Shown here: positions 4,423-59,597 of the stretch, piece by piece
Numbering within the stretch: position 1 is the first letter of the stretch
How the letters are laid out: each line of letters opens with the position of its first letter
Assembly (NCBI GenBank): GCA_016198585.1
Contig: JACQII010000016.1
Coordinates: 88,932-152,931, forward strand
Direction of reading: 5' to 3'
From: Candidatus Aenigmatarchaeota archaeon
Lineage (GTDB): Archaea > Aenigmatarchaeota > Aenigmatarchaeia > QMZP01
Length of the DNA stretch: 64,000 nt
Made by a program: the position numbers and the translations under genes
The notes under the pieces: model-generated
Told to the model about the DNA's origin: nothing
The model's input: only the letters and a program-made list of their open reading frames with translations
Databases searched by the model: none

Positions 4423-5565
4423 CTACTTGCCGAACGTGAGGGAGAGCGCGCCCGCCTGGGTGCCGTCGGTGTAGAACGCGAGTTGCCCACCGATCCGCAT
4501 TTTTCCGAGCGTCGTGCGGATCCCCACGAGCGGACCCGACCGGGTGTCGTCGCCAAACGAGTCCATGCCCCAGCCGATACATAAACCGTCCCAACGCGAG
4601 GACTCACGATCGAACTGCCCGGGAAAGACAAGAGCGTCCCAATGCGTCGATGATGAGCCATCGGGGGAGGCGAGGCGCAGATATTGGATGTTGGCGAGAT
4701 CACCGAAAGCCCAAGGGTCAGCGACCCGATTGAAATTATACTCGTGGGTAAGCGAGGGATCGGTTGCGAACCTCGGGTCGGGATAGAGGATACCGATTGG
4801 CCCGAACAAGCGGCCGGCCCGCTTCTCGTGTCCGAAAAACCGTCCATGGTGGCCCAGCGAGAGCCCGGCCAGCGTGAACTGCGCGCCCGGCTCGTCGCCT
4901 ACCATGTTGTCTACGTGCAGCACGTCCAGGGCCGGCCGCAGCTGAAGGCTCTCGTCTAGTACAGGCAAGACTATCCCTGCCAGATAGCGAGCTTGCTCCT
5001 GCTCTCGCTGGTGGCCGACCGCGATCTCCCAGCCGCTGGACGCCCAGGTCGCGATGCCGCCCGCTCCGTAGGTGTCCGTGGTCTTACCGTCCTTCGCGAA
5101 GCCAGCAACAGCATAGGCGACCGAATCCTGTCCAGTGGTGGCCTTGTTGCGATACAGCAGCCGAGTGAAATCGAAGTCCGCGTCCCCGGGGAGCTCGACC
5201 CGGCCGCCGCCGACGCTCCACCGATCGTCCGGTTGGTAGGCTGCGGCGACGGTGTGCGCGTCCCGGCCAGCTGCCTGGTCGTCGAGGACGTGACCGGCAA
5301 CCACCACGTCGCCCTCAGCGGCCGGGAATCGGGCCATGAGGCTCACGTAGTCCAGGCGGTCATCACCGGACACGCGGCCGACGCCGGCCAGAAAATCCGG
5401 ATGGGTCACGGTGAGTTGGGTGTTCAGGTTGTCGCCAGTATGGTGTGTATATGATTCCGCAACAAGGGTGTCCCAGGGCGTCGCGGCAGCTTCCTGGACG
5501 GAAGCGGGCGCGCTGCAGGCTGTCGCCAGCGCCAGGGAACCCAGGGCATATCGGAAAGCGCGCAT
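4423..5565 (-). CDS. Secreted hypothetical protein (signal peptide, beta-rich)
   Basis: The internal ATG at 5563-5565 gives MRAFRYALGSLALATACSAPASVQEAAA..., an N-terminal signal peptide. No recognisable catalytic motif is present. It is divergent from the TrmB paralog at 5663. Confidence 0.5.
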   Translation of the reverse strand: MRAFRYALGSLALATACSAPASVQEAAATPWDTLVAESYTHHTGDNLNTQLTVTHPDFLAGVGRVSGDDRLDYVSLMARFPAAEGDVVVAGHVLDDQAAGRDAHTVAAAYQPDDRWSVGGGRVELPGDADFDFTRLLYRNKATTGQDSVAYAVAGFAKDGKTTDTYGAGGIATWASSGWEIAVGHQREQEQARYLAGIVLPVLDESLQLRPALDVLHVDNMVGDEPGAQFTLAGLSLGHHGRFFGHEKRAGRLFGPIGILYPDPRFATDPSLTHEYNFNRVADPWAFGDLANIQYLRLASPDGSSSTHWDALVFPGQFDRESSRWDGLCIGWGMDSFGDDTRSGPLVGIRTTLGKMRIGGQLAFYTDGTQAGALSLTFGK

Positions 5566-18698: not shown

Positions 18699-21005
18699 TC
18701 AGAACCCTCCGCAGTCCGCGCACTCCGAGCATTCGCCCGGATCGCAGACCCCGTTGTTGAGGCAGCCCGAGCAGGCATTGCCGCCGCCGAAGCCCTCACC
18801 CTCGAACCCACCGCCCTCGCCAAAGCTGCCCGGAGGCGGTCCGAATCCGTCGTCCTCGAAACCCGGCGGGGGACCGAAGTCCTGGCCCTCTCCCTGGAAT
18901 CCCTGGTCGCCACCAGGACCGCCCGGTCCGTGGCCGCCGAAGATCTGGGCCAGCTTCTGGCAGAGCGGGAAATTCCCTGGCTTGAAGCACGCCTCGGCGC
19001 AGCTCTGCTGGTCCGTGCACCCGAGCTCCTGCATGATGGTCTGGGCCTCAGGAGGGGCGGCGCTCGCGAAGTTCCCGGTGCGGATCGCGTCGGCCATCGG
19101 GCCCACGCAGTTCCACTCGTCCATGGTTTGGGGGCCGGGGCCTTCCTCGCCCACCTGCATGCCCTTGGAGAAGTCGGCGATCTTGCACTCCATGGCGAAG
19201 TCCGGCTTCTCGGTCATCACCGCTTTCATGATGCAGCGACCCTGATCGTCGACGCCTTCGAGGCGGACTTCGACATTGTCGTCCGGCTGGAACGCGGCCG
19301 GTTCGCAGATGCGGAACGCCTTCTCGAAGGCCACGAAATCGTCGGTCTCCTCGACCCGTCCCTCCTCGAAGCTGCTGACGGCCTCCTCGCTCGAACTGAG
19401 CATGACATAGAGGATGTCCTTGAGGGTGACTTCCTTGAGGTGAGCGAGACCGCGCTTGAACTCCTCGATGTCTCCGGTGGTGAGGTCGTTCAGCTGCTGG
19501 CGGAGCCGGTCCTTGATCTGGTTGACCTCGTCCTTCGCATCGGTGAACATGGACGCGACCCGCCGGAAGCGGTTCTCGTCGGCCGAGCCGACCGAGGCAT
19601 AGTAGTCGGCGAGGGCGGTCGACTTCCGGGAGAGCTCGTCGATCTCCTTGATCAGCGCCTCCAGCTTGAAAGCGATCCCGAGCAAGGCAGAGGTCTCGGG
19701 AACCTTGTCGACCTTCTTGTATTCGACCCGGTTCGGATCGCCGCGGCGGATGCATTCGGAGAATGCCATGCACCCGCGGCCATCCTGCTGGACGACCAGT
19801 TCACCGCCTTCCTTCTCGCAGTGGGCATAGGCCTCCTCGGGCAGGGAACGCTGGCAGAACGGTTCCTCTTCGCAGCGCACGATCTTGCAGCCGCTGTCAT
19901 CATAATCAGGCCGGGGATAGCGCCCTTGGTCACTGCATTCTTTCGCCTCGGCCCGCACATCCTCGCACACTTGGCCGTGCTCGATGCACTTGCCGATCTT
20001 GCAGCCACCCTCGAAGACGATCTTCCCCTCGAGGCCGAGCTCGCTGCAGGCGTGCAGCTTGGTCTCGATGGCTTCGGGAGCCGGGCACTCGGGCTGCGGG
20101 CCGAAGAAACTGCGCTGCTCCTGGAAGGCGCATTCGACGATCTCACAGCCCTGGGAGTCGGTCCTAGCCTCGGGCCGGCCGCCTTCCTCCAGGCAGCGCT
20201 TCACCCGGTCGGCCGGCACAGCTGCACAGGATGACTTCTCGTTCTCGCAGAAGACGTGGGTGTAGCCGGACTCGTCCACCTGCTTGACACATTCGCCAGG
20301 CAGCGGACACTGACAGGAGCAGAAGTTGTCCTGCTTCTCGCAGGCCACCGTGCTGCCGTCCGGGCAGGAGATCTGGTCTGGGCACGAAAGAGTAGGAGGG
20401 GCGTCGCTGCACGGGCACGGACCTTTGCACTCGATGCCCGAGCCGGCCACGTCAGCCTCGCAACTGTTGCCGTAGGTCTGGCCGTTCTTGCCGCACACCG
20501 GCTCGTAGACCTCCGGGCAATCTCCTGGACAGTCGCTCAGGCAGGTTTCTTTCTCGCCGTCCTCGCAGATCCCATTCCCGCAGGCCGACGCGCTCGTTGT
20601 GGAGGTAGAGGGTGTGCAGTCGCTCGGGCACGTCTCCTTTTCGCTGTCGCTCGCGCAGATACCATCGCCGCAGGTGATCAGCGGCCCGGTCGAGGAGCCG
20701 CCGCCTGACCCGGTGTCGGAGCCGCCGCCGGAACCACCACCCGAGGATGGGCAGGAGGGCGTGCAGGACGAGCAGGTCCCGCCGCTGCAGGCGTTCTCGC
20801 AGGAGACAGTCGTCCCGTCCGCGCAGGTGATCGTCGTGGGCGAGCAGCTCACGCCCGCGCAGGGGTCAGTCGGACAGTCTGCGGGGCAGCTCTCCTTCTC
20901 GCCATCACCGCAGCTCCCGTCACCGCAGGTCTGGGCCGCGGCCAGAGTGGGAAGTGCCAGAATCAGGACTGCCGAGAGCAGGATCAGGCCGAGGGCGGCT
21001 CTCAT
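18699..21005 (-). CDS. Large secreted cysteine-rich protein with CGDGxC-type modules and a Kazal-type domain (768 aa)
   Basis: There is a signal peptide MRAALGLILLSAVLILALPTLAAA. Repeats CGDGSCGDGEKESCPADC, CGDGICASDSEKETCPSDC and CGNGICEDGEKETCLSDC occur. The Kazal signature is CPEVYEPVCGKNGQTYGNSCEADVAGSGIEC. There is a Gly/Pro-rich acidic C-terminus. Confidence 0.7.
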   Translation of the reverse strand: MRAALGLILLSAVLILALPTLAAAQTCGDGSCGDGEKESCPADCPTDPCAGVSCSPTTITCADGTTVSCENACSGGTCSSCTPSCPSSGGGSGGGSDTGSGGGSSTGPLITCGDGICASDSEKETCPSDCTPSTSTTSASACGNGICEDGEKETCLSDCPGDCPEVYEPVCGKNGQTYGNSCEADVAGSGIECKGPCPCSDAPPTLSCPDQISCPDGSTVACEKQDNFCSCQCPLPGECVKQVDESGYTHVFCENEKSSCAAVPADRVKRCLEEGGRPEARTDSQGCEIVECAFQEQRSFFGPQPECPAPEAIETKLHACSELGLEGKIVFEGGCKIGKCIEHGQVCEDVRAEAKECSDQGRYPRPDYDDSGCKIVRCEEEPFCQRSLPEEAYAHCEKEGGELVVQQDGRGCMAFSECIRRGDPNRVEYKKVDKVPETSALLGIAFKLEALIKEIDELSRKSTALADYYASVGSADENRFRRVASMFTDAKDEVNQIKDRLRQQLNDLTTGDIEEFKRGLAHLKEVTLKDILYVMLSSSEEAVSSFEEGRVEETDDFVAFEKAFRICEPAAFQPDDNVEVRLEGVDDQGRCIMKAVMTEKPDFAMECKIADFSKGMQVGEEGPGPQTMDEWNCVGPMADAIRTGNFASAAPPEAQTIMQELGCTDQQSCAEACFKPGNFPLCQKLAQIFGGHGPGGPGGDQGFQGEGQDFGPPPGFEDDGFGPPPGSFGEGGGFEGEGFGGGNACSGCLNNGVCDPGECSECADCGGF

Positions 21006-26916: not shown

Positions 26917-28179
26917 ATGGTCGTAAGTAGTAATAAGCACCTCTGGACTTTACCTATCTTGTTCTTCTTTCTAGTAATACCAACCGCACAAGGAAGTTGG
27001 GTTGGTGTTCATCCTTCTGGGAATTTTAGTGTCGATTTTCCGTTCTGGGAAGCGGTCAGAATAGTACAGTGGAAGGATGAAAGCACTCTAGACAGGACCA
27101 ATTATCAAGATTTGTTGGTTGCTGCAGAATTCGAACTACAAATTAATAGGAACTTATCAGGAGGGAAGGTAAACATAACATATTACACGTTGGAGGCTTC
27201 AAGGAATAATGACGCTACTAATTTTATATCCAAGGTCTGCAGCGACAGATATTGCAATCATACCATTTTTTCTGGGAGTTCAGTATCGATAGGCAGCAAT
27301 ATCTTTACATTTACTCTGCCTATACCTGAGCTGGAATCAGACACCGTTTTTAATGTTTTCATTGAGTACAGAATTCCTAATTTTATCGAGAAGAAAGGAA
27401 TATACTATGTAGCAAAGTTTAACGCCGTGTGCCAGACTATCGATTTCTGCCCACCTGAGCATACGATGATGCGAACATTCATAATACCATACGAAGATAC
27501 AATCATAGAGAAATTGATACCCGAGAGTATCGAGTCGGCTACCTTTCATGAGAAAGATGAGCAGTACCTGACATTTTCAGAAAGTTATAAAGAGATATGG
27601 TTTTCAAGAATCTCAGAAACCAATTTTTGGTTGCCTTTCCTTTGGCAGTTCTTGGGGGCAGTATTGGGCGCCTTTCTAGCTATTTTGGCAGCCGAAAGTT
27701 GGAAATTCGTTAGAAGAAGAGGATCAAAGATACCGCAGGAGAAAGTCGCAAGAAAGAGTACAGATATGAGAAATCCGAGGGTTAGTAGAAACGACGATAA
27801 ACGTTTTTTGATAAAAGTATATCAGAATAATAGAGATTATCACGCAACGATGGCAACTCAAGGTCTTACAATACTACTTACACTTGCAACATTAATTGTT
27901 GCCATTCTTACTCTCATCAATGTTGCTTATTCATCTGTCGTTAGCCCATGGCTAAGCACATGGTTCCCTATCATGAATCTTGTCATCGTTGCTGCCATTA
28001 TAATAACTTGGATATATGTCTACAAGGTCAGAATTTCGCCTGATAAACGGAGTGCATCGAACTTTCATCTACAGTATAAAATATTTTTATCAGAACTCTA
28101 CCCTCGTCTTTTTCAGCTGTCAGAGAATGACAACAAAAGGATATATGACAGGGAGTTGCGAAAAAAACCAAACTTCTAA
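26917..28179 (+). CDS. Low-GC (~38-40% GC) membrane/secreted hypothetical protein (420 aa)
   Basis: A signal peptide TLPILFFFLVIPTAQG is present with internal TM helices and many N-x-S/T sequons. The composition contrasts strongly with the ~63% GC background. The gene ends 62 nt from the tRNA-Gly 3' end. Confidence 0.5.
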   Translation: MVVSSNKHLWTLPILFFFLVIPTAQGSWVGVHPSGNFSVDFPFWEAVRIVQWKDESTLDRTNYQDLLVAAEFELQINRNLSGGKVNITYYTLEASRNNDATNFISKVCSDRYCNHTIFSGSSVSIGSNIFTFTLPIPELESDTVFNVFIEYRIPNFIEKKGIYYVAKFNAVCQTIDFCPPEHTMMRTFIIPYEDTIIEKLIPESIESATFHEKDEQYLTFSESYKEIWFSRISETNFWLPFLWQFLGAVLGAFLAILAAESWKFVRRRGSKIPQEKVARKSTDMRNPRVSRNDDKRFLIKVYQNNRDYHATMATQGLTILLTLATLIVAILTLINVAYSSVVSPWLSTWFPIMNLVIVAAIIITWIYVYKVRISPDKRSASNFHLQYKIFLSELYPRLFQLSENDNKRIYDRELRKKPNF

Positions 28180-28240
28180 TCCGATCATTCAAGCCGAGGA
28201 TCAATTGTTGAACTTGTCTTGATGTGGTGGTTCGAATGGA

Positions 28241-28354
28241 TGCGTCGGGCGAGAGTCGAACTCGCGTTACAGCCTATTTGCCCGGCGTTTCTGGGTGCAG
28301 CCTCTTTTGAAGAGGTGCTGGCAAGGCCGCGTACTACCACTATACTACCGACGC
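28241..28354 (-). tRNA. tRNA-Gly(GCC) with a 43-nt intron after position 37
   Basis: The acceptor stem is GCGTCGG/CCGACGC. The D-arm is GTAT-AGTGGTA-GTAC. The anticodon stem CGGCC/GGCTG has the loop TTGCCA with anticodon GCC. The T-arm is GCGAG-TTCGACT-CTCGC. The discriminator is A, and CCA is not encoded. The 43-nt insertion 3' of the anticodon matches the canonical archaeal intron position. Confidence 0.7.
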
Positions 28355-28362
28355 GTCGCGGG

Positions 28363-28482
28363 TTATTTCCCGCTGAGCTTTTTAACGTTGATCCCACGGC
28401 ACTGCGGGCACAGCCTCGTTGCGGGCTCCATGAAGAGCGGCTTCCCCTGCCAGCCGCAGCTCGTGCATTCGTAGCGGGCCAT
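28363..28482 (-). CDS. Small zinc-ribbon protein (39 aa; CxxC...CxxC), possibly RpoP-like
   Basis: MARYECTSCGWQGKPLFMEPATRLCPQCRGINVKKLSGK. A TATA 'CCTTTAAAAGG' lies about 28 nt upstream. The gene ends 8 nt before the tRNA-Gly 5' end. Confidence 0.4.
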   Translation of the reverse strand: MARYECTSCGWQGKPLFMEPATRLCPQCRGINVKKLSGK

Positions 28483-28527
28483 GGATGGTCTTTGGCGCCG
28501 GCCTTTAAAAGGGTTACCGCTCGCGAT

Positions 28528-29847
28528 CTAGCCGGTCATCCCGAACTGGCGCGCGATGTTGGCGAGCGGCCCGCGCTTCAGGCCCTTCCCGCCCTTCGCG
28601 AGCTTGACGACCTGCTTCGCCTGCTTGTAGTACTTCAGCAGCTCGCGCACGTCGGCCTCGCTCGTCCCCGATCCCTTCGCGATCCGCACTATCCGCGAGG
28701 CCTTGATGAGGTCAGGGTCAGCGCGTTCGGCCGGGGTCATGGACTGGATGGTGAACTTCCACTTCTTCATCTTCCCTTCCTGGACGTCGAGCATGCCCTT
28801 CGGGATCTTCGCCTTGCTCAGTCCCGGGATCATGTCCACCATCTTCGACAGCGATCCCATCCCTTGCATGGACTGGAGCTGGTCAAAGAAGTCGTCCAGG
28901 GTGAACGACCCCTCCAGCAGGCGCTTGCCCACCTTGTCCGCGCCGGCCTCTTTCGCTTTCTCCAGCAGGCCTTGGAGGTCGCCGTAGCCGATCAGCCGGG
29001 AGACGAACCGCTGCGGGTCGTAGGCCTCCAGGTCCTCGGGGCGCTCGCCGACCCCGATGAACTTGACCTTGGCGCCGGTCGCGTTCGTCGCGGCCAGCGC
29101 GCCGCCGCCCTTGGCGGTTCCGTCGAGTTTGGTAATGACGACGCCGGTGATCCCCACGAGGCGGTTGAACTCCTCCGCCTGCTTGCGGGCCGCCTGGCCG
29201 ATGTCCGCGGGCAGCACGAGCAAAACCTCGTCCGGCTTGATCTCCTGGCCGAGGGTCTTGAGTTCCTTGGCGAGATCAGCATCGAGCGCGTCGCGGCCCG
29301 CCGAGTCGAAGATCAGCACGTCCTCCTTCATGGCGAGTCCTGTCTTCGCCACGGCCACGGCGTCGGTCCCCTCGGCCACGACCCGGGCCTCGACTTTCTT
29401 CCCGACCTGGCGCAGCTGCTCCTGCGCAGCCGGTCGGTGGACGTCGCAGCCTACCAGCCCGACCGACAGGCCGCGGGTCTTGAACCACTTGGCGAGCTTC
29501 CCCGAGAGCGTCGTCTTCCCGGACCCGAAGAGGCCGACCAGGAGGATGCGCTGCTTCCGCAGCTGGACCTCCCCGCGCTCCGCTCCCAGGAAGGCTACCA
29601 GCTCGTCGTACAGGACCTTCAGGAAATGCTCCTTGAGCGTCATCCCCGCCGGCGGCGGGCTGCCGAGGACCTGCTTCCTGATCCGGCTGGACAGGTCAGC
29701 CACTAGGGCGACGTCCGCGTCAGCCTGGAGGAGGCTCCGCTGGAGGTCGCGGACGACCGCGTCGACCGCCTCCTTGTCCACCACGCCGAGGCCGGCAATC
29801 CGGCGAAGGGCGTCTTTCAGGCCAGAGCCCAGGTTCTCGAGGACCAT
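28528..29847 (-). CDS. srp54: Signal recognition particle protein SRP54
   Basis: An N domain, an SRP GTPase domain (GLFGSGKTT, DTAGR-like, TKLDG) and an M domain are present over 439 aa. Confidence 0.9.
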   Translation of the reverse strand: MVLENLGSGLKDALRRIAGLGVVDKEAVDAVVRDLQRSLLQADADVALVADLSSRIRKQVLGSPPPAGMTLKEHFLKVLYDELVAFLGAERGEVQLRKQRILLVGLFGSGKTTLSGKLAKWFKTRGLSVGLVGCDVHRPAAQEQLRQVGKKVEARVVAEGTDAVAVAKTGLAMKEDVLIFDSAGRDALDADLAKELKTLGQEIKPDEVLLVLPADIGQAARKQAEEFNRLVGITGVVITKLDGTAKGGGALAATNATGAKVKFIGVGERPEDLEAYDPQRFVSRLIGYGDLQGLLEKAKEAGADKVGKRLLEGSFTLDDFFDQLQSMQGMGSLSKMVDMIPGLSKAKIPKGMLDVQEGKMKKWKFTIQSMTPAERADPDLIKASRIVRIAKGSGTSEADVRELLKYYKQAKQVVKLAKGGKGLKRGPLANIARQFGMTG

Positions 29848-31904: not shown

Positions 31905-32201
31905 TCACGTCTTGAACCTCTTGAGCTCTTTCGGAGTGCGCGCCGGCGCGGACAGGGCCGCCTCGGCCATCTGCGTCAGCTGCACGGCCATCGTCCGCTC
32001 GGTGACGTACTTCCCGCTCTCGTCGTTCATCCACGAGCCATTCCCGTTGTAGCGGAACTGGACTTCTCTCGGCGGATTGGTATCGAGGGGGTAGCGGATC
32101 ACATGACCGAGGGGAATCTGGGAAGAGGCCGCCTCGCGGAAGCCGTAGACACGGGAGGCGACATCGTGGAACTTCATGCCTTCATCGTCACTCCTGGGCA
32201 T
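31905..32201 (-). CDS. Hypothetical protein inserted between rpl44e and rps27e
   Basis: 98 aa: MPRSDDEGMKFHDVASRVYGFREAASSQIPLGHVIRYPLDTNPPREVQFRYNGNGSWMNDESGKYVTERTMAVQL... It is tightly packed, with 4-5 nt gaps on both sides. It is coding-like, and no family is recognised. Confidence 0.45.
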   Translation of the reverse strand: MPRSDDEGMKFHDVASRVYGFREAASSQIPLGHVIRYPLDTNPPREVQFRYNGNGSWMNDESGKYVTERTMAVQLTQMAEAALSAPARTPKELKRFKT

Positions 32202-32205
32202 CCGC

Positions 32206-32499
32206 TCACCCCGCCACCAGTTCGAACTTCTTCACGCGGAACCCGACCTTGGTGTGCATCTTCTTGCACACCTTGCACTGCAGGCGCAGGTCGAGCTTCT
32301 GGGTGGGCTTCTTGCTCACCGCAGGCTTGGAATACTTCCCATGGCCGCCGTGGCCCCGCTTGTGGCGGTCCTTGGCCCGGTTGGCCTTCGAGTTCGGGTG
32401 GGCCGACCCGCGGGACCGCTGCTTCACGACCTTGACCGTGTGCACGGTATGCTTGCGGCAGGTCGGACACAGGGTGTTGATGGTTTTCGGAAACTTCAT
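32206..32499 (-). CDS. rpl44e: 50S ribosomal protein L44e
   Basis: MKFPKTINTLCPTCRKHTVHTVKVVKQRSRG...CKVCKKMHTK. The internal ATG is at 32497-32499. Confidence 0.85.
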   Translation of the reverse strand: MKFPKTINTLCPTCRKHTVHTVKVVKQRSRGSAHPNSKANRAKDRHKRGHGGHGKYSKPAVSKKPTQKLDLRLQCKVCKKMHTKVGFRVKKFELVAG

Positions 32500-32641
32500 A
32501 CGCCCACTATGAGCATGAGGCTTTTTAAAGCATCGCAAGCCTGCAGGCGGCTCATGCGGAAGACGGCGGCAAAGAGGAAAAGCGGCCGCCTCACGCCAGC
32601 AACCTTTATAAGGAACCGGGCCAATAAGATGCAGATATCTC

Positions 32642-33154
32642 ATGAAGGCTGCGCATGTCGTCATCGGCATCGTGATGTTCATCCTTTTCTGGGCTTACCA
32701 AGCAGGCTACGCAGCCTCGCTGGGACCGGCTGCATGGTTCGTGGCCGCACTGGTGTTTTCAGTCCTGCTCATGGCCATGGGGAAAACCTCCATGGAGAAG
32801 CCCCAGCCCGACATCAAGTCAGCCTGGCAGTTCTCCATTGCCTTCGTCCTGATCTCTACGCTGATCATCTCCTTCGCTGGTCAGTCCCTCGGGGCGGTCG
32901 TGCCTGCGGATCCCTCCGCATGGACACCGATGCTCCTGAGCTTCTGGCTCGTCGTCTTCGGCGGCGCCATGCTCGTGACCGGTTGGAAAATCGACTCGCC
33001 GCTCACCACCCTGGTGGGCATCATCTGGCTCTTCTCGGCGCTGCACTTCGTCACTGCGGTCGGCACCGGAGCGAACTCGTACCTGCACTTCGGCCTGGTG
33101 ACCGGCCTGACCACCATCCTCGCCGGCCTGTTCGGAAAAGCCCCGAAGGCGTAA
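32642..33154 (+). CDS. Hypothetical membrane protein (4-5 TM)
   Basis: The hydrophobic helices include VVIGIVMFILFWAY, WFVAALVFSVLLMAM, AFVLISTLIISFAG and LLSFWLVVFGGAMLV. Confidence 0.5.
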   Translation: MKAAHVVIGIVMFILFWAYQAGYAASLGPAAWFVAALVFSVLLMAMGKTSMEKPQPDIKSAWQFSIAFVLISTLIISFAGQSLGAVVPADPSAWTPMLLSFWLVVFGGAMLVTGWKIDSPLTTLVGIIWLFSALHFVTAVGTGANSYLHFGLVTGLTTILAGLFGKAPKA

Positions 33155-33203
33155 CTCGTTCTTGTCCATCCACAGGTAGGTAAGGGGAGCCGCTGTCTCC
33201 GGT

Positions 33204-42327: not shown

Positions 42328-42885
42328 ATGGACGAAACCGTGACCCTGGACCGGCAGACGTTCAAAGTCCTGGCGTCCGAGACGCGGGTGGGGATGCTCA
42401 AGCTGCTCGCCCAGCGACGGATGACGCTGACCGAACTCGCGACCAGGCTCGGTCTGGCCCCGTCGAGCGTCAAGGAGCACCTGGACGCCTTAGTCGCTTC
42501 CGGACTCATCGCCCAGGCCGACGAGGGGCACAAGTGGAAGTACTATGCGCTCACCGAAAAGGGCAAGGACATCCTCCACCCCGCGGAGAAGAGGGTCTTC
42601 ATCCTGCTCGGGCTCGGGCTCGTGATTGGGATCGCCAGCCTGGCCTCGCTCGCCGCGAACCTCCCCGCCAGCGAACGTTTTGCCGCGACCGATCTCGTCG
42701 AGATCCCGCAGGTGGCGGCCCCTGCCACCACTCTGCCGGGTGCACTCCCTGAAGATGCTCCTGATTCTGCGCCCTTCCCCACCACGACACTGAGCATCGC
42801 CCTGGCGGCGCTGATCATAGCCGGAGGATGCGCCGGCTACCTCCTGGGGATACGGCGCGGCGTGCGGTTCGGGATGTCCGCGTAA
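42328..42885 (+). CDS. ArsR-family wHTH regulator with a C-terminal membrane anchor
   Basis: The HTH is VLASETRVGMLKLLAQRRMTLTELATRLGLAPSSVKEHL. TM segments are VFILLGLGLVIGIASLASLAA and LSIALAALIIAGGCAGYLL. Confidence 0.6.
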   Translation: MDETVTLDRQTFKVLASETRVGMLKLLAQRRMTLTELATRLGLAPSSVKEHLDALVASGLIAQADEGHKWKYYALTEKGKDILHPAEKRVFILLGLGLVIGIASLASLAANLPASERFAATDLVEIPQVAAPATTLPGALPEDAPDSAPFPTTTLSIALAALIIAGGCAGYLLGIRRGVRFGMSA

Positions 42886-42904: not shown

Positions 42905-43912
42905 TCACCCGAACGTGAAGCTATAGGCCTGGACACCCGGGGTGAACTGAAGTTCAAGGACGTGAGGGCCAGGTACAGGGGAAGCCACGAGGCGGTAGAG
43001 GCGCTCCCCGCTGACGGCGATGTTGCCATTGATCACGTCTTCGCCGGCAACGTCTGCGTCGACGGGTTGACCATCGAGCAGGACGGCAACCGTTCCTGAC
43101 CCGCCCAGGACCATGTGGACCTTCTGGGCGCTATAGATCAGTTCCACCGCTGCGTCAGCCCCGGCGAGCATGTGGTCCGCCTTGTTCGTCCAGCTGCCCG
43201 CGAGGTAGAGCGTGTTTGGCAGCGTCGCCGGGATCGCGTCATAGGTGACGACAGCCTCGGGCTGGATGCCTTCGGCGTTCCCGAGGGGAGCGCGGATGAA
43301 TGCGTAGCCGAAATACAGCTCAGGGGTCTGGATCGAACCGAAGGTCACGTTCTCGGCCGTGACGGCTGCTCCTGGACCAGGCGCGCCAAGCAGCTGCTGG
43401 ATCACGGCCTCCGTTTCCTGGTACGCACCCTCCCCGATGTGATCGTAGCGGATGTTGCCCTCGCGGTCGATGAGGTATTTCCGAGGCCAGTAGCTGTTCC
43501 GGTAGGCGCGCCAGGTGGCGAAGTCGTTGTCCAGGACGACGGGATAGGTGATGCCGTACTTCTCGACCGCGGCCTGGACGTTTTCGTAGTCGTGCTCGAA
43601 GGCGAACTCCGGAGCATGCACGCCGACGATGACTAGGCCCTGGTCACGGTATGCCGCGTCCCACGCGACGAGGTAAGGGAGTGTCCGAATGCAGTTGATG
43701 CAGGAGTAGGTCCAGAAGTCGATGAGGACGACCTTGCCGCGCAGCTCCTCGAGGGTGAACGGCTCGGCGTTGATCCATCCGGCGATCCCTGCGAGTTCGG
43801 GGGCCGGGCCGTAGCTGGGAAGGTCGCCCGTGGCGACCGGCGGAGGCGACAGCGCGAAGAGGAGCCCGAGGAGCAGGATCGCGGCCACGGCAGCCGGGAT
43901 CACCGGACTCAT
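42905..43912 (-). CDS. TlpA/ResA-like thioredoxin-fold thiol:disulfide oxidoreductase with an N-terminal anchor and a C-terminal beta-rich domain
   Basis: An anchor MSPVIPAAVAAILLLGLLFAL is present. The redoxin motif is WTYSCINC (CxxC). ATG 43912 overlaps the ccdA stop (ATGA). Confidence 0.65.
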   Translation of the reverse strand: MSPVIPAAVAAILLLGLLFALSPPPVATGDLPSYGPAPELAGIAGWINAEPFTLEELRGKVVLIDFWTYSCINCIRTLPYLVAWDAAYRDQGLVIVGVHAPEFAFEHDYENVQAAVEKYGITYPVVLDNDFATWRAYRNSYWPRKYLIDREGNIRYDHIGEGAYQETEAVIQQLLGAPGPGAAVTAENVTFGSIQTPELYFGYAFIRAPLGNAEGIQPEAVVTYDAIPATLPNTLYLAGSWTNKADHMLAGADAAVELIYSAQKVHMVLGGSGTVAVLLDGQPVDADVAGEDVINGNIAVSGERLYRLVASPVPGPHVLELQFTPGVQAYSFTFG

Positions 43913-44619
43913 AGCATGAGGTCCACGAAGAAGAAGGTGGACAGGTAGTTGATGTAGCCGGTGAAGACCAGGATGCCGATCGCAATCAGCAGCAGGCCCA
44001 TGATGATGCGGAACGGCCGCATGAAGCGTTCGCTCCGCTTGATGAAGGTCGAGGCCTGCGAGGTGAACAGTCCGACCGCGAGGAACGGCATGCCGAGGCC
44101 GGCGGCATAGGCCAGCAGCAGGTTGAACGCCGCCCCCGGCGTGACGATGGCGAGGGTGAGGATGCTCCCCAGGACCGGGCCGACGCAGGGTGTCCAGCCA
44201 GCGGCGAACGCGACGCCGAAGACGAACGAGGTCAGATACGTCCACCGGAACTTGCGGGGCTTGAGCTTGTGCTCGCGCTCAAGGAAGCCGATCTTGAACA
44301 GCCCAAGCAGGTAGACGCCGAAGAGGACGATCACGATCCCGCCGATCCATCCCAGCCAGAGGCGGAGTCCATAGGCGACGGTCGACAGGACCGTGTTCAG
44401 CAGCACGCCGAGGAGAGCGAAGATGAGGGCGAACCCGACCACGAAGCTGACCGCGTTGAGGAAGATCGTCATCCGTGCGCGTTTCGGGCTCGCGGAGATT
44501 TCGCTCACGCTGATGCCCGAGAGGTAGGAGATGAACGCCGGGACCAGGGGAAGGATGCAGGGCGACAGGAACGAGACAATGCCCGCGATGAAGGCGATCA
44601 GGAGGGTGATGTCGGCCAT
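43909..44619 (-). CDS. ccdA: Cytochrome c-type biogenesis protein CcdA (DsbD transmembrane domain)
   Basis: Six TM helices are present with a conserved Cys in FLSPCILPLVPAF and a second Cys-containing helix. Confidence 0.8.
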   Translation of the reverse strand: MADITLLIAFIAGIVSFLSPCILPLVPAFISYLSGISVSEISASPKRARMTIFLNAVSFVVGFALIFALLGVLLNTVLSTVAYGLRLWLGWIGGIVIVLFGVYLLGLFKIGFLEREHKLKPRKFRWTYLTSFVFGVAFAAGWTPCVGPVLGSILTLAIVTPGAAFNLLLAYAAGLGMPFLAVGLFTSQASTFIKRSERFMRPFRIIMGLLLIAIGILVFTGYINYLSTFFFVDLML

Positions 44620-44622
44620 GGG

Positions 44623-45384
44623 TCACCCACCGGCTGCGATCAACCGGCTCTCGATCTCACCCGCGGGCAGGGCAGACACGGCCTTGCTCGACAGTGTTCC
44701 ATCCGGCCGGATGAAGAGGTGGGTGTGCTGGTAGGCGACACCGTAGGTCTGGGCCAGAGCAGCATCGTCCTGGTTGTTCTGGCCGTCGTTCCAATGGGAC
44801 TCGAAGCCGACAGCGTTGGTGAGCTCCAGACCGTCGAAGGTCGCCAGGATGTTGGGCCGCTCTGCCGCGCAGATGGGACACCAGGTAGCGTACACGTAGA
44901 CATAGACTGCCTTCCCGTCCGCGAGGGCCTGGTCAAAGTCAGCCTTCGTATAGCGGAGGTAGGGGGTGGTTGAACCGGCGATCAGCTCGCCGGTGTAGTC
45001 GGCCGAGGCTGCAGGCGGCGGGGTGACCGTCCCATCGGGCGCGACCATGGTGCCGTCCGGCTTCACCATCGTGCCGTCAGGCTTGACGATGGTGCCGTCC
45101 TCCTGGAGGGTGGTGCCTTCCGGCGCGACCATGGTCCCGTCGGGTAGCACCATGACGCCGTTCGGCTTCACCATCGTGCCGTCAGGCTTGATCATCGTGC
45201 CGTCCGGTTTAATCATCGTCCCGTCGGGCTTCACCATGGTCCCGTCAGGCTTGATCATCGTGCCGTCCGGCTTCAGGATCGTTCCATCGTCCTGCACGAC
45301 ATCTCCCTGGACGCCACCCGGGATGGCGGAGGTGCATCCCGCCACGGCCACGATCGCAAGGAGCGCGAAGGCGAAAAGCTTCAT
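44623..45384 (-). CDS. Lipoprotein-like secreted thioredoxin with a long 'KPDGTM[IV]' heptad-repeat linker
   Basis: MKLFAFALLAIVAVAGCTS is a signal peptide with a lipobox-like AGC. About 12 heptads (DGTMIKP/DGTMVKP) occur. The C-terminal thioredoxin fold has WCPIC. TATA 'CTTATAAACC' lies about 22 nt upstream. Confidence 0.65.
   Translation of the reverse strand: MKLFAFALLAIVAVAGCTSAIPGGVQGDVVQDDGTILKPDGTMIKPDGTMVKPDGTMIKPDGTMIKPDGTMVKPNGVMVLPDGTMVAPEGTTLQEDGTIVKPDGTMVKPDGTMVAPDGTVTPPPAASADYTGELIAGSTTPYLRYTKADFDQALADGKAVYVYVYATWCPICAAERPNILATFDGLELTNAVGFESHWNDGQNNQDDAALAQTYGVAYQHTHLFIRPDGTLSSKAVSALPAGEIESRLIAAGG
45030..45300 (-). repeat. Tandem 21-nt coding repeats (about 12 copies) encoding the KPDGTM[IV] heptads
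   Basis: Units such as CCGTCCGGCTTCACCATCGTG, CCGTCAGGCTTGATCATCGTG and similar are visible directly. Confidence 0.8.
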
Positions 45385-45502
45385 ACTACCGGTGGTCCGC
45401 GGCATCTTATAAACCTAATCCAAGATCCTTCCAGAGTGTTAGTCGCCATTTGTCCAACCGAGAGTCCTTTCTTGGTGTCGGAGCGTTAAGGTTGGTACGG
45501 GG

Positions 45503-45593: not shown

Positions 45594-46172
45594 TTATTTT
45601 CCTTCTTTTACGAAACCGATGCGTTTATTTTGTGCGGTCATTGTAACAAGATTCTTGAGAGCTTTTTGGTAGATCGCTATGCCATGACGTTTTCTGCTTT
45701 CAACATATGCCACCCGAATTCTTTTATACGATTCTGGCATTTTCTGAAAGTTTTTCCAAGCGTCTTTATCAGCCCTTAGTGCTTTCAAGATTCCGGGAGG
45801 AATTATAAATTCTTCTTTCTTGTCGGTCTTTGGATCATACACATGGGCGATAGCGACAAGTCCGGCTTTAGTCATTTTCTTCTGCGCAATAAGCTCGCGG
45901 ACACGCTCCTTGTTCATTTGAGACAAGACACTGTTTGACTTTCTGGGAGAGAACCGTTGGACAAAACTCTCGTTATCAAGTTTTTTGACAATACTGTCTA
46001 TCCAGCCATAACAAAGCGCTTCAAGAACGGCATCGTCGTAACTTATTCTTGGTTTGCCTGAATCCTTTCTGTAAAAAACAAGCCAAATCTCGTCAGCGGT
46101 TTTGTGGTGTGTTGATAACCAGGCGCGCCATGTCTTTCTTTCTGTGACATACAAAGTTTTACCAATATCCAT
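45594..46172 (-). CDS. YdeI/OmdA-family protein (DUF1801-like), low-GC
   Basis: The internal ATG at 46172 gives MDIGKTLYVTERKTWRAWLSTHHKTADEIWLVFYRK... The WR.WL..NH and IWL.FYKK motifs are typical of the YdeI family. GC is about 40% against the ~63% background. TATA 'CATATACAAAAGG' lies upstream. Confidence 0.55.
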   Translation of the reverse strand: MDIGKTLYVTERKTWRAWLSTHHKTADEIWLVFYRKDSGKPRISYDDAVLEALCYGWIDSIVKKLDNESFVQRFSPRKSNSVLSQMNKERVRELIAQKKMTKAGLVAIAHVYDPKTDKKEEFIIPPGILKALRADKDAWKNFQKMPESYKRIRVAYVESRKRHGIAIYQKALKNLVTMTAQNKRIGFVKEGK

Positions 46173-46203
46173 AGTTAACTTATTACACCTTTTGTATATG
46201 AGG

Positions 46204-46237
46204 TCGCACACCCCCTTGCGCTGAGAGGGGGCCTCTG
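46204..46237. repeat. Hairpin-containing repeat copy 2 (CGCACACCCCCTTGCGCTGAGAGGGGGCCTCTG)
   Basis: See copy 1. It lies upstream of the YdeI-gene promoter and downstream of the convergent small membrane-protein gene. Confidence 0.5.
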
Positions 46238-46340
46238 ACCCCGTCACTGTGTGCAGTTTATTCCAGGAATCAATAGACGAGGGCCTTTTTGGCTCCTGCA
46301 TCTTTTGCGTGTCTGGATGCAGACGGAGAGGAGCAGACCT

Positions 46341-46619
46341 TCACTCCCAGCTGATCCAGAGCAGGATGGCGAGGCCGACGGCCTTGACGGCCTGGAGCGT
46401 GAGGGCAGCCGCCTCGGCGGCGAGCGAGGTGTACATCACCATGCTGACGGCGAAGGATATGCTCATTGCGGTCTCGGCGATCATGAAACCGATGAAGAAC
46501 ACCAGGCCGGCCGTGTACTTCGACCTGAGCCGCCGGTAGTTGGCAAGGTATATCACCAGCAGCGCGACCAGCAGGAGGAGTGTCAGGCCGTGAATGCCCA
46601 GGGAGAGGAGGTCGGCCAT
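46341..46619 (-). CDS. Small membrane protein (92 aa, 3 TM)
   Basis: MADLLSLGIHGLTLLLLVALLVIYLANYRR... Its start lies 5 nt after the stop of the upstream wHTH regulator gene. Confidence 0.4.
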   Translation of the reverse strand: MADLLSLGIHGLTLLLLVALLVIYLANYRRLRSKYTAGLVFFIGFMIAETAMSISFAVSMVMYTSLAAEAAALTLQAVKAVGLAILLWISWE

Positions 46620-46623
46620 AGCT

Positions 46624-46941
46624 TCATTCACTTCCCCGGCTCTTAAAAGCCTTATCCAACATCGCGGCGATCTCGTCCAGAACGGACCGGTTCGCGTCCA
46701 GCAGCGGGGAGAGGAAATAGACGCTGCCATACCTCTTCCGTTCAGGCGCGACCAGCCCTGACTTCTCGAGGACGCGGGCGTGGTACATCATCGTCGTGTA
46801 ATCCATGCCGAGGGCCCGGGAGAGCTGGTTCAGGTTCCGCGGCCGCTCCTTGAGCAGCAGCAGGATCCGCAGGCGCGCGATCCCGCCCCGGGTCCCGCCC
46901 ACGTAGAGCCAGAGGATCCGCCGGATGTCAGGGGTGAGCAC
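46624..46941 (-). CDS. Winged-helix transcriptional regulator (ArsR/PadR-like)
   Basis: IARLRILLLLKERPRNLNQLSRALGMDYTTMMYHARVLEKSGLVAPERKRYGSVYF is a wHTH. The gene is in an operon with the small membrane protein. Confidence 0.5.
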   Translation of the reverse strand: MLTPDIRRILWLYVGGTRGGIARLRILLLLKERPRNLNQLSRALGMDYTTMMYHARVLEKSGLVAPERKRYGSVYFLSPLLDANRSVLDEIAAMLDKAFKSRGSE

Positions 46942-57913: not shown

Positions 57914-58849
57914 TCAGAGGGGCATGAGGTCGATCGAGACGTCCTCGAAGATGGGGATGATCTCGTAGTTGTCTATGAGGTCGAACTTGTCCCGCAGGTC
58001 GATGATGAGCTGCTGCAGACTCTCATTGTCCTCTATCCGCACGTGCACCAGGAGGTTCCATACGCCGAACATCCTGACTGCCTGCGTGACCGATTCAGTC
58101 CTTTCGAGGTAGTGGATCAGCTTGTTCTCTCTTTCCTTCGCATAGTCCTTGAAGGAGAAGAGAACGAGGAAGGGCTTCCTATCTTCCGTTCTCATGAACA
58201 TCCGATAGCCGAGGATGACATTCGCCCTTTCCATCGCCTTGACCCTATTTATGATCGTCTTGTAGGATACCTGTTTTTCGCGGGAGATCTCCAAGGACGA
58301 TAATCTGCAATTCTCCTTCAGCTTGCTGAGGATGAAATGGTCGAGGCCATCGATATCTGTATGCTTATCCTGGTATCCGTAGGTCATGGTGTGGTAGTCT
58401 TTGCTGAGAAATTTGTGCCGGTAGACGTAATGATTCAAACCATAGCAACTGGTATAGTTCTTGACCAGCCCGGGAAATCGTGCATTGAACTTTTCCATGA
58501 AGTTGTCGAATGCCGCAAAGTCGAAGACGAATAGCACGACGTGCAGATCGTATGCGCCACCAGTCCGCGCGGACCAGTAGACCCCTTTCTGGCCGCCCAG
58601 GTAGTCAAAGACCTCCTTGCTGGAGTAGGTGCTCGAATTGAACGTGAAAAACACCCTGTAGTGTTCCTGCTTCAGGGCCTTGAGGTTGATGATGGCTCCT
58701 ATTTTCGTGATGCGTTTCTCGACGATCATCCTCCTTATCCGGTAGTCTGCAACCTGCTGGGAAATGCGTAACTTTCTCGCGAGCTTTGCGACCGGCGTTC
58801 GCGGATGGGAGTCCAGTTCAGCCAGAATCTTCGTATCAATTCTGTCCAT
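57914..58849 (-). CDS. Tandem-duplicated Lrp/AsnC-family transcriptional regulator (two HTH_AsnC + RAM-like modules), low-GC
   Basis: HTH 1 is MDRIDTKILAELDSHPRTPVAKLARKLRISQQVADYRIRRM. HTH 2 is LDHFILSKLKENCRLSSLEISREKQVSYKTIINRVKAMERANVILGY. There is a RAM-like C-terminus. GC is about 45%. Confidence 0.6.
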   Translation of the reverse strand: MDRIDTKILAELDSHPRTPVAKLARKLRISQQVADYRIRRMIVEKRITKIGAIINLKALKQEHYRVFFTFNSSTYSSKEVFDYLGGQKGVYWSARTGGAYDLHVVLFVFDFAAFDNFMEKFNARFPGLVKNYTSCYGLNHYVYRHKFLSKDYHTMTYGYQDKHTDIDGLDHFILSKLKENCRLSSLEISREKQVSYKTIINRVKAMERANVILGYRMFMRTEDRKPFLVLFSFKDYAKERENKLIHYLERTESVTQAVRMFGVWNLLVHVRIEDNESLQQLIIDLRDKFDLIDNYEIIPIFEDVSIDLMPL

Positions 58850-58940
58850 GCATGAGTTGGAATATTTTTCTTTAAAAAGGTTCTTATATACAAAAATAGA
58901 GACCCTACATTCCTATAAAATAGGAACGCCTATTCTGGAC

Positions 58941-59597
58941 ATGAGAATCAGGGTTCAAAACGTGGAATATGAATTGGGCGGCGGGGATGTACGATCGGGT
59001 GGGGTTGTACGACCGTTTAGGGTGAGTTTTGACACAGGAGACCGATATTTCCGTCTGAAATTATCTGCCACAGGCTCTCTCTACGTCAATAATGAAGGCC
59101 GGTTCTCAGATAAAAGAAAGGGCAAAATGCGGTACAGCGATGATCCAGGATTGAACGATGGTAGTCTCCTCTCAAACCCTTATTTGGAACTAAAGCTCTC
59201 TGATTTCTCCCCACACGAAGAGATGACCGCACACTGGAAGAGTGTTCGTTCACACTTTGTGGAAGATAAGGACTCCTCAGAACCGATACGTGGAAAGTCT
59301 CTTGACAGAAGATTCCCCTCTGAAGGATGTCTCTATGTCGATGGGCATCCATGGGAACAGCACTACAAGCATGGCAGGCATCATTATTATCTAAGAAAGG
59401 ACGGGCTACTGATCGAGGATACAAAGACGATACAGCTTCTGGAAAGAGAGCAGCCTGAGACTGTTCTGGAACTGATGAAATTCATAGCGGCGGCGAGACC
59501 TCCGCGGGAGGCTCTGGAGTCCATTCGTATGAGGAGATGGAAGATGTCGAGCGCTGAGACTTTGAGTCTAGGAGTGGGGAGCAGGCTGGTGTCGTGA
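58941..59597 (+). CDS. Hypothetical protein, paralog A of a tandem pair (218 aa)
   Basis: MRIRVQNVEYELGGGDVR...NPYLELKLSDFSPHEEMTAHW...RFPSEGCLYVDGHPWEQHYKHGRHHYYL...QPETVLELMKFIAAARPPREALES. No family is recognised. AT-rich TATA-like boxes lie upstream ('TTCTTATATACA' and 'CCTATAAAATAGG'). Confidence 0.5.
   Translation: MRIRVQNVEYELGGGDVRSGGVVRPFRVSFDTGDRYFRLKLSATGSLYVNNEGRFSDKRKGKMRYSDDPGLNDGSLLSNPYLELKLSDFSPHEEMTAHWKSVRSHFVEDKDSSEPIRGKSLDRRFPSEGCLYVDGHPWEQHYKHGRHHYYLRKDGLLIEDTKTIQLLEREQPETVLELMKFIAAARPPREALESIRMRRWKMSSAETLSLGVGSRLVS

Follow-up and report, generated by a model that had tools for sequence, protein, structure and literature searches.

The DNA stretch of 64,000 nt analysed here (the window) carries on its minus strand, from position 45405 to 42905, three tightly packed open reading frames (ORFs) in the order A, B and C. 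It is likely, with a probability of about 0.65, that this operon encodes an extracytoplasmic reducing relay of the DsbD/DipZ type, which in this DPANN archaeon is split into separate polypeptides. The components (CcdA, DipZ, the thioredoxin fold and DUF6799) are of known kinds, and the proteins are already deposited under generic names. Novel is the combination of a split DipZ with a stalked thioredoxin-like protein, which lacks the cis-proline and possesses a methionine-containing tether, and the conservation of this combination across DPANN archaea and bacteria of the Candidate Phyla Radiation (CPR).

A sequence-only reading of this DNA, made before the present analysis, had described three overlapping genes. 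Three genes are indeed present, and genes B and C share 4 nt (ATGA), but the stop codon of gene A and the start codon of gene B do not overlap and are separated by a gap of 3 nt. The interpretation of A-B-C as a co-oriented and translationally coupled operon for extracytoplasmic thiol-disulfide chemistry is supported. The ORF of gene A (45405..44623) comprises 260 amino acids from an alternative ATG at 45405, and this form is used here for the residue numbering. The true start is likely the ATG at 45384, which yields 253 amino acids and matches the NCBI entry MBI4021657.1 ('thioredoxin family protein') from a metagenome-assembled genome of Candidatus Aenigmarchaeota, to which gene A is 100% identical. 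The motif TTTATAA is located 26 nt upstream of this ATG, which is the usual distance between TATA box and start codon in archaea, and this spacing suggests that gene A possesses its own promoter and is putatively transcribed as a leaderless mRNA.

Gene B had been regarded as CcdA, a DsbD-type conduit for electrons, and this assignment was confirmed by a match to the Pfam family DsbD_TM (PF02683; E=4.7e-14 over residues 5-219; 52.6 bits, cut-off 27.1). The protein shows multiple hydrophobic segments, and its only cysteines are Cys21 (44557-44559) in the motif SPCILPL and Cys145 (44185-44187) in the motif WTPCVGP. It therefore resembles the beta-domain of CcdA/DsbD, which spans the membrane several times and has two Pro-Cys motifs with a single cysteine each, but in contrast to DsbD of E. 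coli it lacks the alpha and gamma domains, and the partner domains are separate proteins.

Gene C encodes a protein with one N-terminal transmembrane helix and a redoxin domain, which contains the motif CINC (43691-43702) and a YWP cis-proline motif; Pfam matches were obtained with Redoxin/AhpC-TSA and PF17991. It aligned to the crystal chains 2hyx and 5cyy of DipZ with E=1.5e-69 over nearly the full length, including the C-terminal domain. CINC was present in all 61 homologs of gene C and WP in 60 of these. The additional beta-rich C-terminal domain, which had been recognized from the sequence, is present and corresponds to the known carbohydrate-binding-module-like (CBM-like) domain PF17991. 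The designation of gene C as TlpA/ResA-like was correct with regard to CINC but had to be rejected with regard to the family, as the protein reached 68 bits (E=9e-19) with the ResA model and 19 bits with the TlpA model at cut-offs of 170 and 230, respectively.

DipZ (Rv2874) of Mycobacterium tuberculosis, a DsbD-like protein, consists of a CcdA-like membrane domain fused to an ectodomain in one polypeptide. Gene C shares with it the motif SCINC, the YWP cis-proline motif and PF17991, while gene B corresponds to the CcdA-like membrane domain. By this homology, genes B and C represent a split version of DipZ. The differences are that the window contains two overlapping genes, with the CcdA-like domain encoded separately by gene B, instead of one fusion, that the host is an archaeon and that a gene for a stalked thioredoxin-like protein leads the operon. 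Fused CcdA-DipZ proteins were found in some related CPR loci (for example 578 amino acids in locus L063, 5417-7153), and the family thus comprises fused and split members in a natural series of fusion or fission. Because CcdA and the ectodomain are fused in DipZ and in the CPR relatives, it is likely that gene B hands electrons to gene C. To our knowledge, the physiological substrates of DipZ are not established.

Gene A is composed of a signal peptide with a lipobox, a series of heptads, a short Pro/Ala linker and a thioredoxin-fold domain with the motif WCPIC. Residues 17-24 (AIVAVAGC) fit the lipobox pattern [LVI][ASTVI][GAS]C, and lipidation of the cysteine is predicted. A lipobox occurred in 22 of 37 archaeal loci with gene A homologs and in none of 43 CPR loci, where an N-terminal transmembrane anchor takes its place. 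The type of anchor thus tracks the host, which fits a protein that faces outward. In the AlphaFold2 model, calculated with 112 homologs, the mean predicted local distance difference test (pLDDT) score was 88.5 overall and above 93 over the C-terminal domain. This domain superposed on classical thioredoxins with template modelling (TM) scores of up to 0.82 (Foldseek) and on the gamma domain of DsbD, and the CxxC motif is placed at the start of helix 1 in the predicted fold. The match of its sequence to curated models is marginal: gene A scored 20.5 bits with Pfam Thioredoxin (cut-off 23.5), and every NCBIfam match was far under its cut-off. Some homologs carry the precomputed Pfam label PF27023 '6BHPP', which could not be interpreted; no literature was found on '6BHPP', on DUF6799 or on a split DipZ with a stalked thioredoxin-like protein.

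Three sets of gene A homologs were used: 120 sequences from a search with the whole protein, 112 which were aligned, and 145 from a search with the domain only. The latter covered 1.84 billion cluster representatives and yielded 430 clusters at E<=1e-10, and the 145 sequences are the new representatives among the best 150 of these. WCP[ITVL]C was found in 116 and WCxxC in 119 of the 120 sequences, while the 145 best domain-only representatives contained WCPxC (143) or WCSxC (2). The CxxC motifs of both thioredoxin-fold proteins are hence conserved, as the sequence-only reading had presumed. Invariant in the 112 aligned sequences are A173, W175, C176, C179, Q226 and H227. In the alignments, the cis-prolines of MPT53 ('QP') and PDI ('GYPT') fall on His227. 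Gln-His occupied this position in about 139 of the 145 best domain-only representatives (126 YQH[TS] and 13 other QH), and proline in none of the 145. According to PMC2757866, the cis-proline is more conserved across the thioredoxin fold class than CxxC itself. The description of gene A as a lipoprotein-like thioredoxin with WCPIC therefore holds for the lipobox, the fold and the active-site motif; by its sequence, the protein is nevertheless an atypical member of the thioredoxin fold, whose chemistry should not be assumed.

Among the Protein Data Bank (PDB) chains listed, the closest solved relatives of this domain were Trxlp of Edwardsiella (family profile; 5zpv E=3.7e-16, 5zf2 2.3e-15) and MPT53/DsbE of M. 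tuberculosis (single sequence; 1lu4 E=4.7e-6). Both share WCPxC with gene A, and Trxlp likewise lacks the cis-proline. However, Trxlp has Gln-Ser where gene A has Gln-His and possesses no stalk, MPT53 has kept the cis-proline, and neither of them has a Met-rich tether. According to PMC6636751, Trxlp was a poor reductase of insulin and is a virulence effector that functions within the cells of the host. Because of this weak activity of the closest solved relative and the replaced cis-proline, the place of gene A in the relay is uncertain.

The stalk of gene A is encoded by an array which had been described as about 12 near-perfect KPDGTM[IV] heptads in 21-nt tandem repeats. The array was verified but is less regular. 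It consists of 13 heptads in the order QDDGTIL, five KPDGTM[IV], KPNGVMV, LPDGTMV, APEGTTL, QEDGTIV, two KPDGTMV and APDGTVT, and seven of these match KPDGTM[IV] exactly while the other six are variants. An N-terminal block, the KPNGVMV unit, a PEG break and a C-terminal block can be distinguished. Tandem Repeats Finder (TRF) detected the period of 21 nt (also 42) with 11.4 copies at 45044..45282, but with only 72% matches, so that the DNA is not near-perfect. Units encoding the same peptide differed by 2.3 synonymous nucleotides on average.

An array of this kind might have arisen through misassembly, or be a contingency locus that switches fast and has no structural role. This would be conceivable for 21-nt units in tandem that were assembled from short metagenome reads, and the longest exact repeat (29 nt at an offset of 63 nt) is the trace of one block duplication in the past. 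However, the Logan assemblies of the runs SRR12113383 and SRR12113384 both encode the same 260-amino-acid protein, and their DNA shows 99.9% identity to the window with no gap over the array. With regard to a possible variation of the copy number between strains, all copies found were identical, and the 90% protein cluster of gene A has two members, which differ in the start codon only. Since three assemblies from different runs and software are identical and the DNA is degenerate, the array is not an assembly artefact, in agreement with the sequence-only reading. Conserved peptides at 72% similarity of the DNA units point to purifying selection on the protein. Furthermore, more than 100 homologs have such arrays, and the internal layout (the KPNGVMV unit, the PEG break and three C-terminal units) also occurs in relatives with an overall identity of 43-49%, compared to which the N-terminal block of the window is longer by 3-4 units. 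An artefact or contingency locus is therefore most improbable, and the array seems to be an old, selected repeat rather than a slippage hot-spot; nothing in the sequences suggests hypervariability. The presumed variability in length applies to the comparison between species: homologs found with the whole protein had 0 to 15 heptads (median 5), and the 12-13 heptads of the window are near the top of this range, while the identical assemblies and the degenerate DNA argue against rapid slippage. Heptad arrays were rare (3 of 145) among the domain-only representatives, which are the less biased sample.

The array matched Pfam DUF6799 with E=3.3e-12 (46.4 bits, cut-off 26.8; profile positions 24-63). 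The score was spread over the repeats, and no single stretch of the array passed alone; compared to DUF6799, the array is an expanded, idealised and Met-bearing version. AlphaFold2 predicted the repeats alone with a pLDDT of 95.7 and a predicted TM score of 0.77; in this model the M[IV] pair forms a strand of two residues, which recurs at intervals of seven residues. The best PDB fold matches of the model were single-layer beta-sheets, namely the G-box of CPAP/TCP10 and MORN repeats; the match to the G-box is modest (TM score 0.37-0.41) and itself rests on the prediction. A small relative of the repeat without thioredoxin domain carries a Pfam Tcp10_C match. If the prediction is right, the stalk would be a rigid single-layer beta-ribbon with a length of about 6 nm (13 x 0.48 nm).

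Methionine is enriched in the tethers of the gene A family, with a median content of 9.5% compared to 0-1% in the thioredoxin domain. Among the tethers without heptads, more than half are rich in methionine as well (13-25% Met); these consist of either a full DUF6799 domain (GFEMKDGKMLMV..., E of about 1e-16 to 1e-17), which occupies the tether position in members from Woesearchaeota and Gottesmanbacteria, or low-complexity segments of the MMEKKDGE type. The low-complexity tethers of CPR members gave no curated match to the MXKDX-type repeat family. Methionine followed DGT in 73% of 634 thioredoxin-linked heptads. A homology search with the repeats only, which probably let few sequences pass its composition filters, yielded 17 matches and served as comparison set without thioredoxin; in the PDGT arrays of these small proteins methionine followed DGT in 4% of 70 units, with Ile or Val instead. 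In the domain-only sample 38% of the 145 tethers were Met-rich. Methionine in the tethers of gene A thus appears to be selected, and is common but not universal.

The distribution was taken from the best 80 of 384 relatives, which were obtained by scanning GTDB with a single genome for each species. These belong to DPANN archaea (Aenigmatarchaeota, Micrarchaeota, Woesearchaeota and Nanoarchaeia) or to CPR/Patescibacteria. Six of the 80 loci are oddly auto-labelled, three as 'Gammaproteobacteria' and three as 'Methanosarcinales' (L056, L072, L078, L028, L041 and L081), and may be mislabelled bins. The order A-B-C on one strand was found in 56 of the 69 loci with enough flanking sequence (24 of 32 archaeal and 32 of 37 CPR loci). 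In a neighbour-joining tree of the gene C homologs, which is crude and in practice unrooted, the archaea mostly formed one block with about four sequences nested among CPR; six label switches occurred, and the nearest neighbour belonged to the same domain of life in 57 of 62 cases. This topology suggests that a few transfers of gene C have taken place between the domains.

On this basis the following route of electrons is proposed. Cytoplasmic thioredoxin would reduce the two membrane-embedded cysteines of the CcdA encoded by gene B, which in turn would reduce the CINC disulfide of the membrane-anchored gene C protein. The CBM-like domain of the latter probably docks it to a glycan or to another partner at the surface. 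From there, reducing equivalents would pass to surface substrates, including or via gene A, which may itself be a client of the relay, serve as its second acceptor or be an effector with a specialised role. The gene A protein is predicted to be lipid-anchored and held off the membrane by its 13-heptad stalk with one short beta-strand per heptad. The likely function would be to keep Cys-rich surface or secreted proteins, or the Cys-Cys-His site of gene A itself, reduced or correctly paired in the oxidising environment outside the cell. A putative client is a secreted protein of 768 amino acids (18699-21005, minus strand) with 64 cysteines and a Kazal-like segment, and it is plausible that it is served by a surface disulfide system. 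This protein contains repeated 'CGDG(I/S)C...EKE(S/T)CP(A/S)DC' modules and gave no Pfam match at 1e-5. The relay from cytoplasm to cell surface, as already presumed from the sequence, is thus consistent with the operon, the CcdA conduit and the two thioredoxin-fold ectoproteins.

Several observations weigh against this relay, most of them with respect to gene A. It lacks the cis-proline which is used by canonical thiol-disulfide oxidoreductases, and MPT53, its best PDB match with the single sequence, is described as an oxidant and not a reductant. The earlier proposal that the linker acts as a ruler or spacer fits the confident prediction of a rigid ribbon, but idealised repeats can lead to over-confident AlphaFold predictions, and a role as pure spacer leaves the methionine bias unexplained. 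In addition, no client is tied to the operon by gene context, and the 64-cysteine protein is encoded 24 kb away.

A non-canonical function of gene A, for example the capture of metals or oxidants, is possible but rather unlikely. The same applies to the wider proposal that the family, found only in CPR and DPANN among the best genome hits, is a surface device which captures thiophilic metal ions or oxidants and is kept charged by the split DipZ. If this were true, it would be an unrecognised module for envelope defence or metal acquisition in ultra-small episymbionts, exchanged between two domains of life. With regard to metals, gene A would be a surface capture or chaperone protein for thiophilic ions such as Cu(I) and not a general reductase: the methionine ladder of the stalk would collect the ions and pass them to the Cys176-Cys179-His227 site, the role of CcdA and the DipZ-type protein would be limited to keeping this site reduced, and the ArsR-type regulators would control expression. 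The invariant His, which is placed next to CxxC instead of the cis-proline, is in line with such a function, as the cis-proline was proposed to stop CxxC from binding metal (Su et al. 2007, cited in PMC2757866), although the His could equally tune the pKa of the thiols. The Met-rich tethers, including the heptad-free ones, and the preference for Met after DGT in thioredoxin-linked heptads also fit, yet about 45% of the heptad-free tethers are not Met-rich, and some are Pro/Ser/Thr linkers. ArsR/SmtB-type genes flank the operon here and in relatives, but the CPR loci have XRE-type regulators. Among 79 related loci, over which the neighbours were counted, a FTR1 metal permease was located nearby in 7, whereas no copper ATPase or multicopper oxidase was recurrent. 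The poor reductase activity of Trxlp, the closest solved relative, also speaks for this function. However, neither Sco, CopC and CusF nor any other known copper protein resembles gene A in sequence. No Sco chain was found among the best 60 of 75 PDB chains matched by the sequence at E<=1 or among the best 60 of 152 matched by the profile at E<=0.001, and the spacing is CxxC instead of the CxxxC of Sco, so that only the idea of a Cys-Cys-His site is analogous to these copper chaperones. Metal handling is therefore considered unlikely.

The Met-rich tether might also act as an oxidant shield at the surface and scavenge reactive oxygen or chlorine species sacrificially, with the thioredoxin domain and CcdA/DipZ supplying electrons for its repair, analogous to periplasmic Met-rich peptides repaired by methionine sulfoxide reductase (Msr). 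Pneumococcal CcdA-Etrx-MsrAB2, Neisseria PilB and Azospira MrpX with YedY are precedents for such systems. Enrichment of methionine in three unrelated styles of tether (heptads, the DUF6799 domain and low complexity of the MMEKKD type) could be understood in this way, and in oxic groundwater, CPR and DPANN organisms reportedly depend on antioxidant genes of the thioredoxin type (PMC9938205). MsrA was encoded within about 1.5 kb of the operon in 7 of the 79 loci, but it was absent from the other 72, and the neighbouring MsrA has no signal peptide and is probably cytoplasmic. The operon itself contains no Msr gene (Msr was not sought elsewhere in the window), and thioredoxin alone cannot reduce methionine sulfoxide, which makes this function quite improbable. 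Finally, CcdA together with a ResA-like redoxin would be the classic arrangement of system II of cytochrome c maturation, in which a relay of the ResA/CcmG/TlpA type reduces the CxxCH motifs of apocytochromes, and the sequence-only reading had suggested such a link. The match of gene C to the ResA model is weak and far below its cut-off, none of the 67 ORFs of the window contains CxxCH, and no ResB/ResC/Ccm-like (ccs/ccm) gene was among the recurrent neighbours in the 79 loci. As the three genes occur in CPR and DPANN, which generally lack electron transport chains according to PMC7507113, cytochrome c maturation is very unlikely, and this suggestion was abandoned.

With respect to its architecture, the proposed reducing relay resembles the pneumococcal CcdA-Etrx system and the ScsB/C/D proteins of copper tolerance, in which a reductase of the CcdA/DsbD type is combined with tethered extracytoplasmic proteins of the thioredoxin fold. 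The Etrx chains 4evm and 4hqs gave weak sequence and fold matches to gene A. However, the operon has no MsrAB partner and no homologs of ScsA or ScsC, and the likeness is one of architecture only.

The maintenance of three genes for such a relay despite tiny genomes, mostly without a respiratory chain, suggests importance for life on the surface of another cell or in oxic groundwater. The small soluble domains offer a tractable entry to the upkeep of surface protein thiols in CPR and DPANN, and the gene A family is a natural test case for the role of the cis-proline of thioredoxins. A split, minimal DipZ may help to define the partners of DipZ, which is poorly understood in M. tuberculosis, and beta-ribbon stalks with a tunable length of 0-15 units are of possible interest for protein engineers. 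The coordinates of all features are compiled in the following table.

Table. Positions of the operon, its motifs and further features in the window (residue numbers refer to the 260-amino-acid form of gene A; aa, amino acids; AF2, AlphaFold2; HTH, helix-turn-helix)
Feature	Position	Strand	Basis or remark
Gene A, lipobox-anchored stalked atypical thioredoxin-like protein	44623..45384	-	ORF; 253 aa
Gene A, predicted signal peptide with lipobox VAGC (Cys24)	45334..45384	-	Sequence
Gene A, array of 13 heptads (91 aa)	45022..45294	-	TRF, unit table, Pfam DUF6799, AF2
Gene A, thioredoxin-fold domain (about aa 135-260)	44626..45003	-	AF2, Foldseek, PDB matches
Gene A, WCPIC active-site motif W175-C179	44869..44883	-	Conserved in homologs
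Gene A, invariant Gln226-His227 at the thioredoxin cis-proline position	44725..44730	-	Alignments
TATA-like box TTTATAA	45407..45413	-	26 nt 5' of ATG 45384; read from sequence
Gene B, CcdA-type membrane thiol conduit	43909..44619	-	236 aa; Pfam DsbD_TM
Gene C, transmembrane-anchored DipZ-type ectodomain	42905..43912	-	335 aa from ATG 43912; PDB and Pfam matches
Gene C, C-terminal 'Thioredoxin_10' (PF17991) domain	42908..43327	-	Pfam E=1e-31, profile 1-142 of 142
Upstream ArsR-type HTH regulator	46624..46941	-	Pfam HTH_5 E=2.2e-8
Small membrane protein DUF8036, paired with HTH gene	46341..46619	-	Precomputed Pfam DUF8036 in L005, L002
Convergent ArsR/SmtB-type HTH protein	42328..42885	+	Pfam HTH_5 E=1.7e-10; putative link to operon
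tRNA match, 114 nt	28241-28354	-	Rfam 53 bits; missed by ARAGORN, probably intron-containing

Beside the operon, genes for putative regulators were identified. About 20 loci, most of them archaeal and one of them in the window (46941..46341), contain beside their gene A homolog a pair consisting of an ArsR-type HTH protein and the small membrane protein DUF8036. HTH genes were found upstream of gene A homologs in 20 loci and the DUF8036 cluster in 21 loci; the pair is also present in the loci L002, L003 and L005. In CPR loci an XRE-type HTH gene and a different small membrane protein (137 amino acids) were detected. The HTH protein and the small membrane protein may form a membrane-coupled regulator pair for the operon. 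The convergent HTH protein encoded downstream reached 53.6 bits with the NCBIfam model HTH_metalloreg (cut-off 55). It shows a long hydrophobic C-terminal extension, which is an unusual architecture of a membrane-tethered regulator, and the 3' end of its gene is only 19 nt away from the stop codon of gene C. In the Azambacteria locus L001 an additional thioredoxin of 144 amino acids (4905-5339) is encoded between the homologs of genes A and B, and two glutaredoxins, an AhpC-type redoxin and a DUF3179 gene are located upstream, so that the genes are part of a larger redox island.

The archaeal origin of the host, as proposed previously, is in accordance with several markers in the window, namely domain 4 of Hel308, the C-terminal domain of an archaeal-type ProRS, an archaeal pilin and the tRNA, whereas the assignment of the contig to Candidatus Aenigmarchaeota is given by the source label only. 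The tRNA match overlaps the start of an ORF (28219-29706). The GC content of the window is 62.8%, with about 0.85 at third codon positions (GC3), which seems high for a DPANN archaeon. Between the HTH/DUF8036 pair and gene A an OmdA/YdeI-like gene is located (45594-46301, minus strand), which has 42.8% GC and a GC3 of 0.45 and looks like a recent foreign insertion. Further ORFs with low GC3 are 26917-28179 (0.40), 32176-33183 (0.51) and 58764-59597 (0.50).

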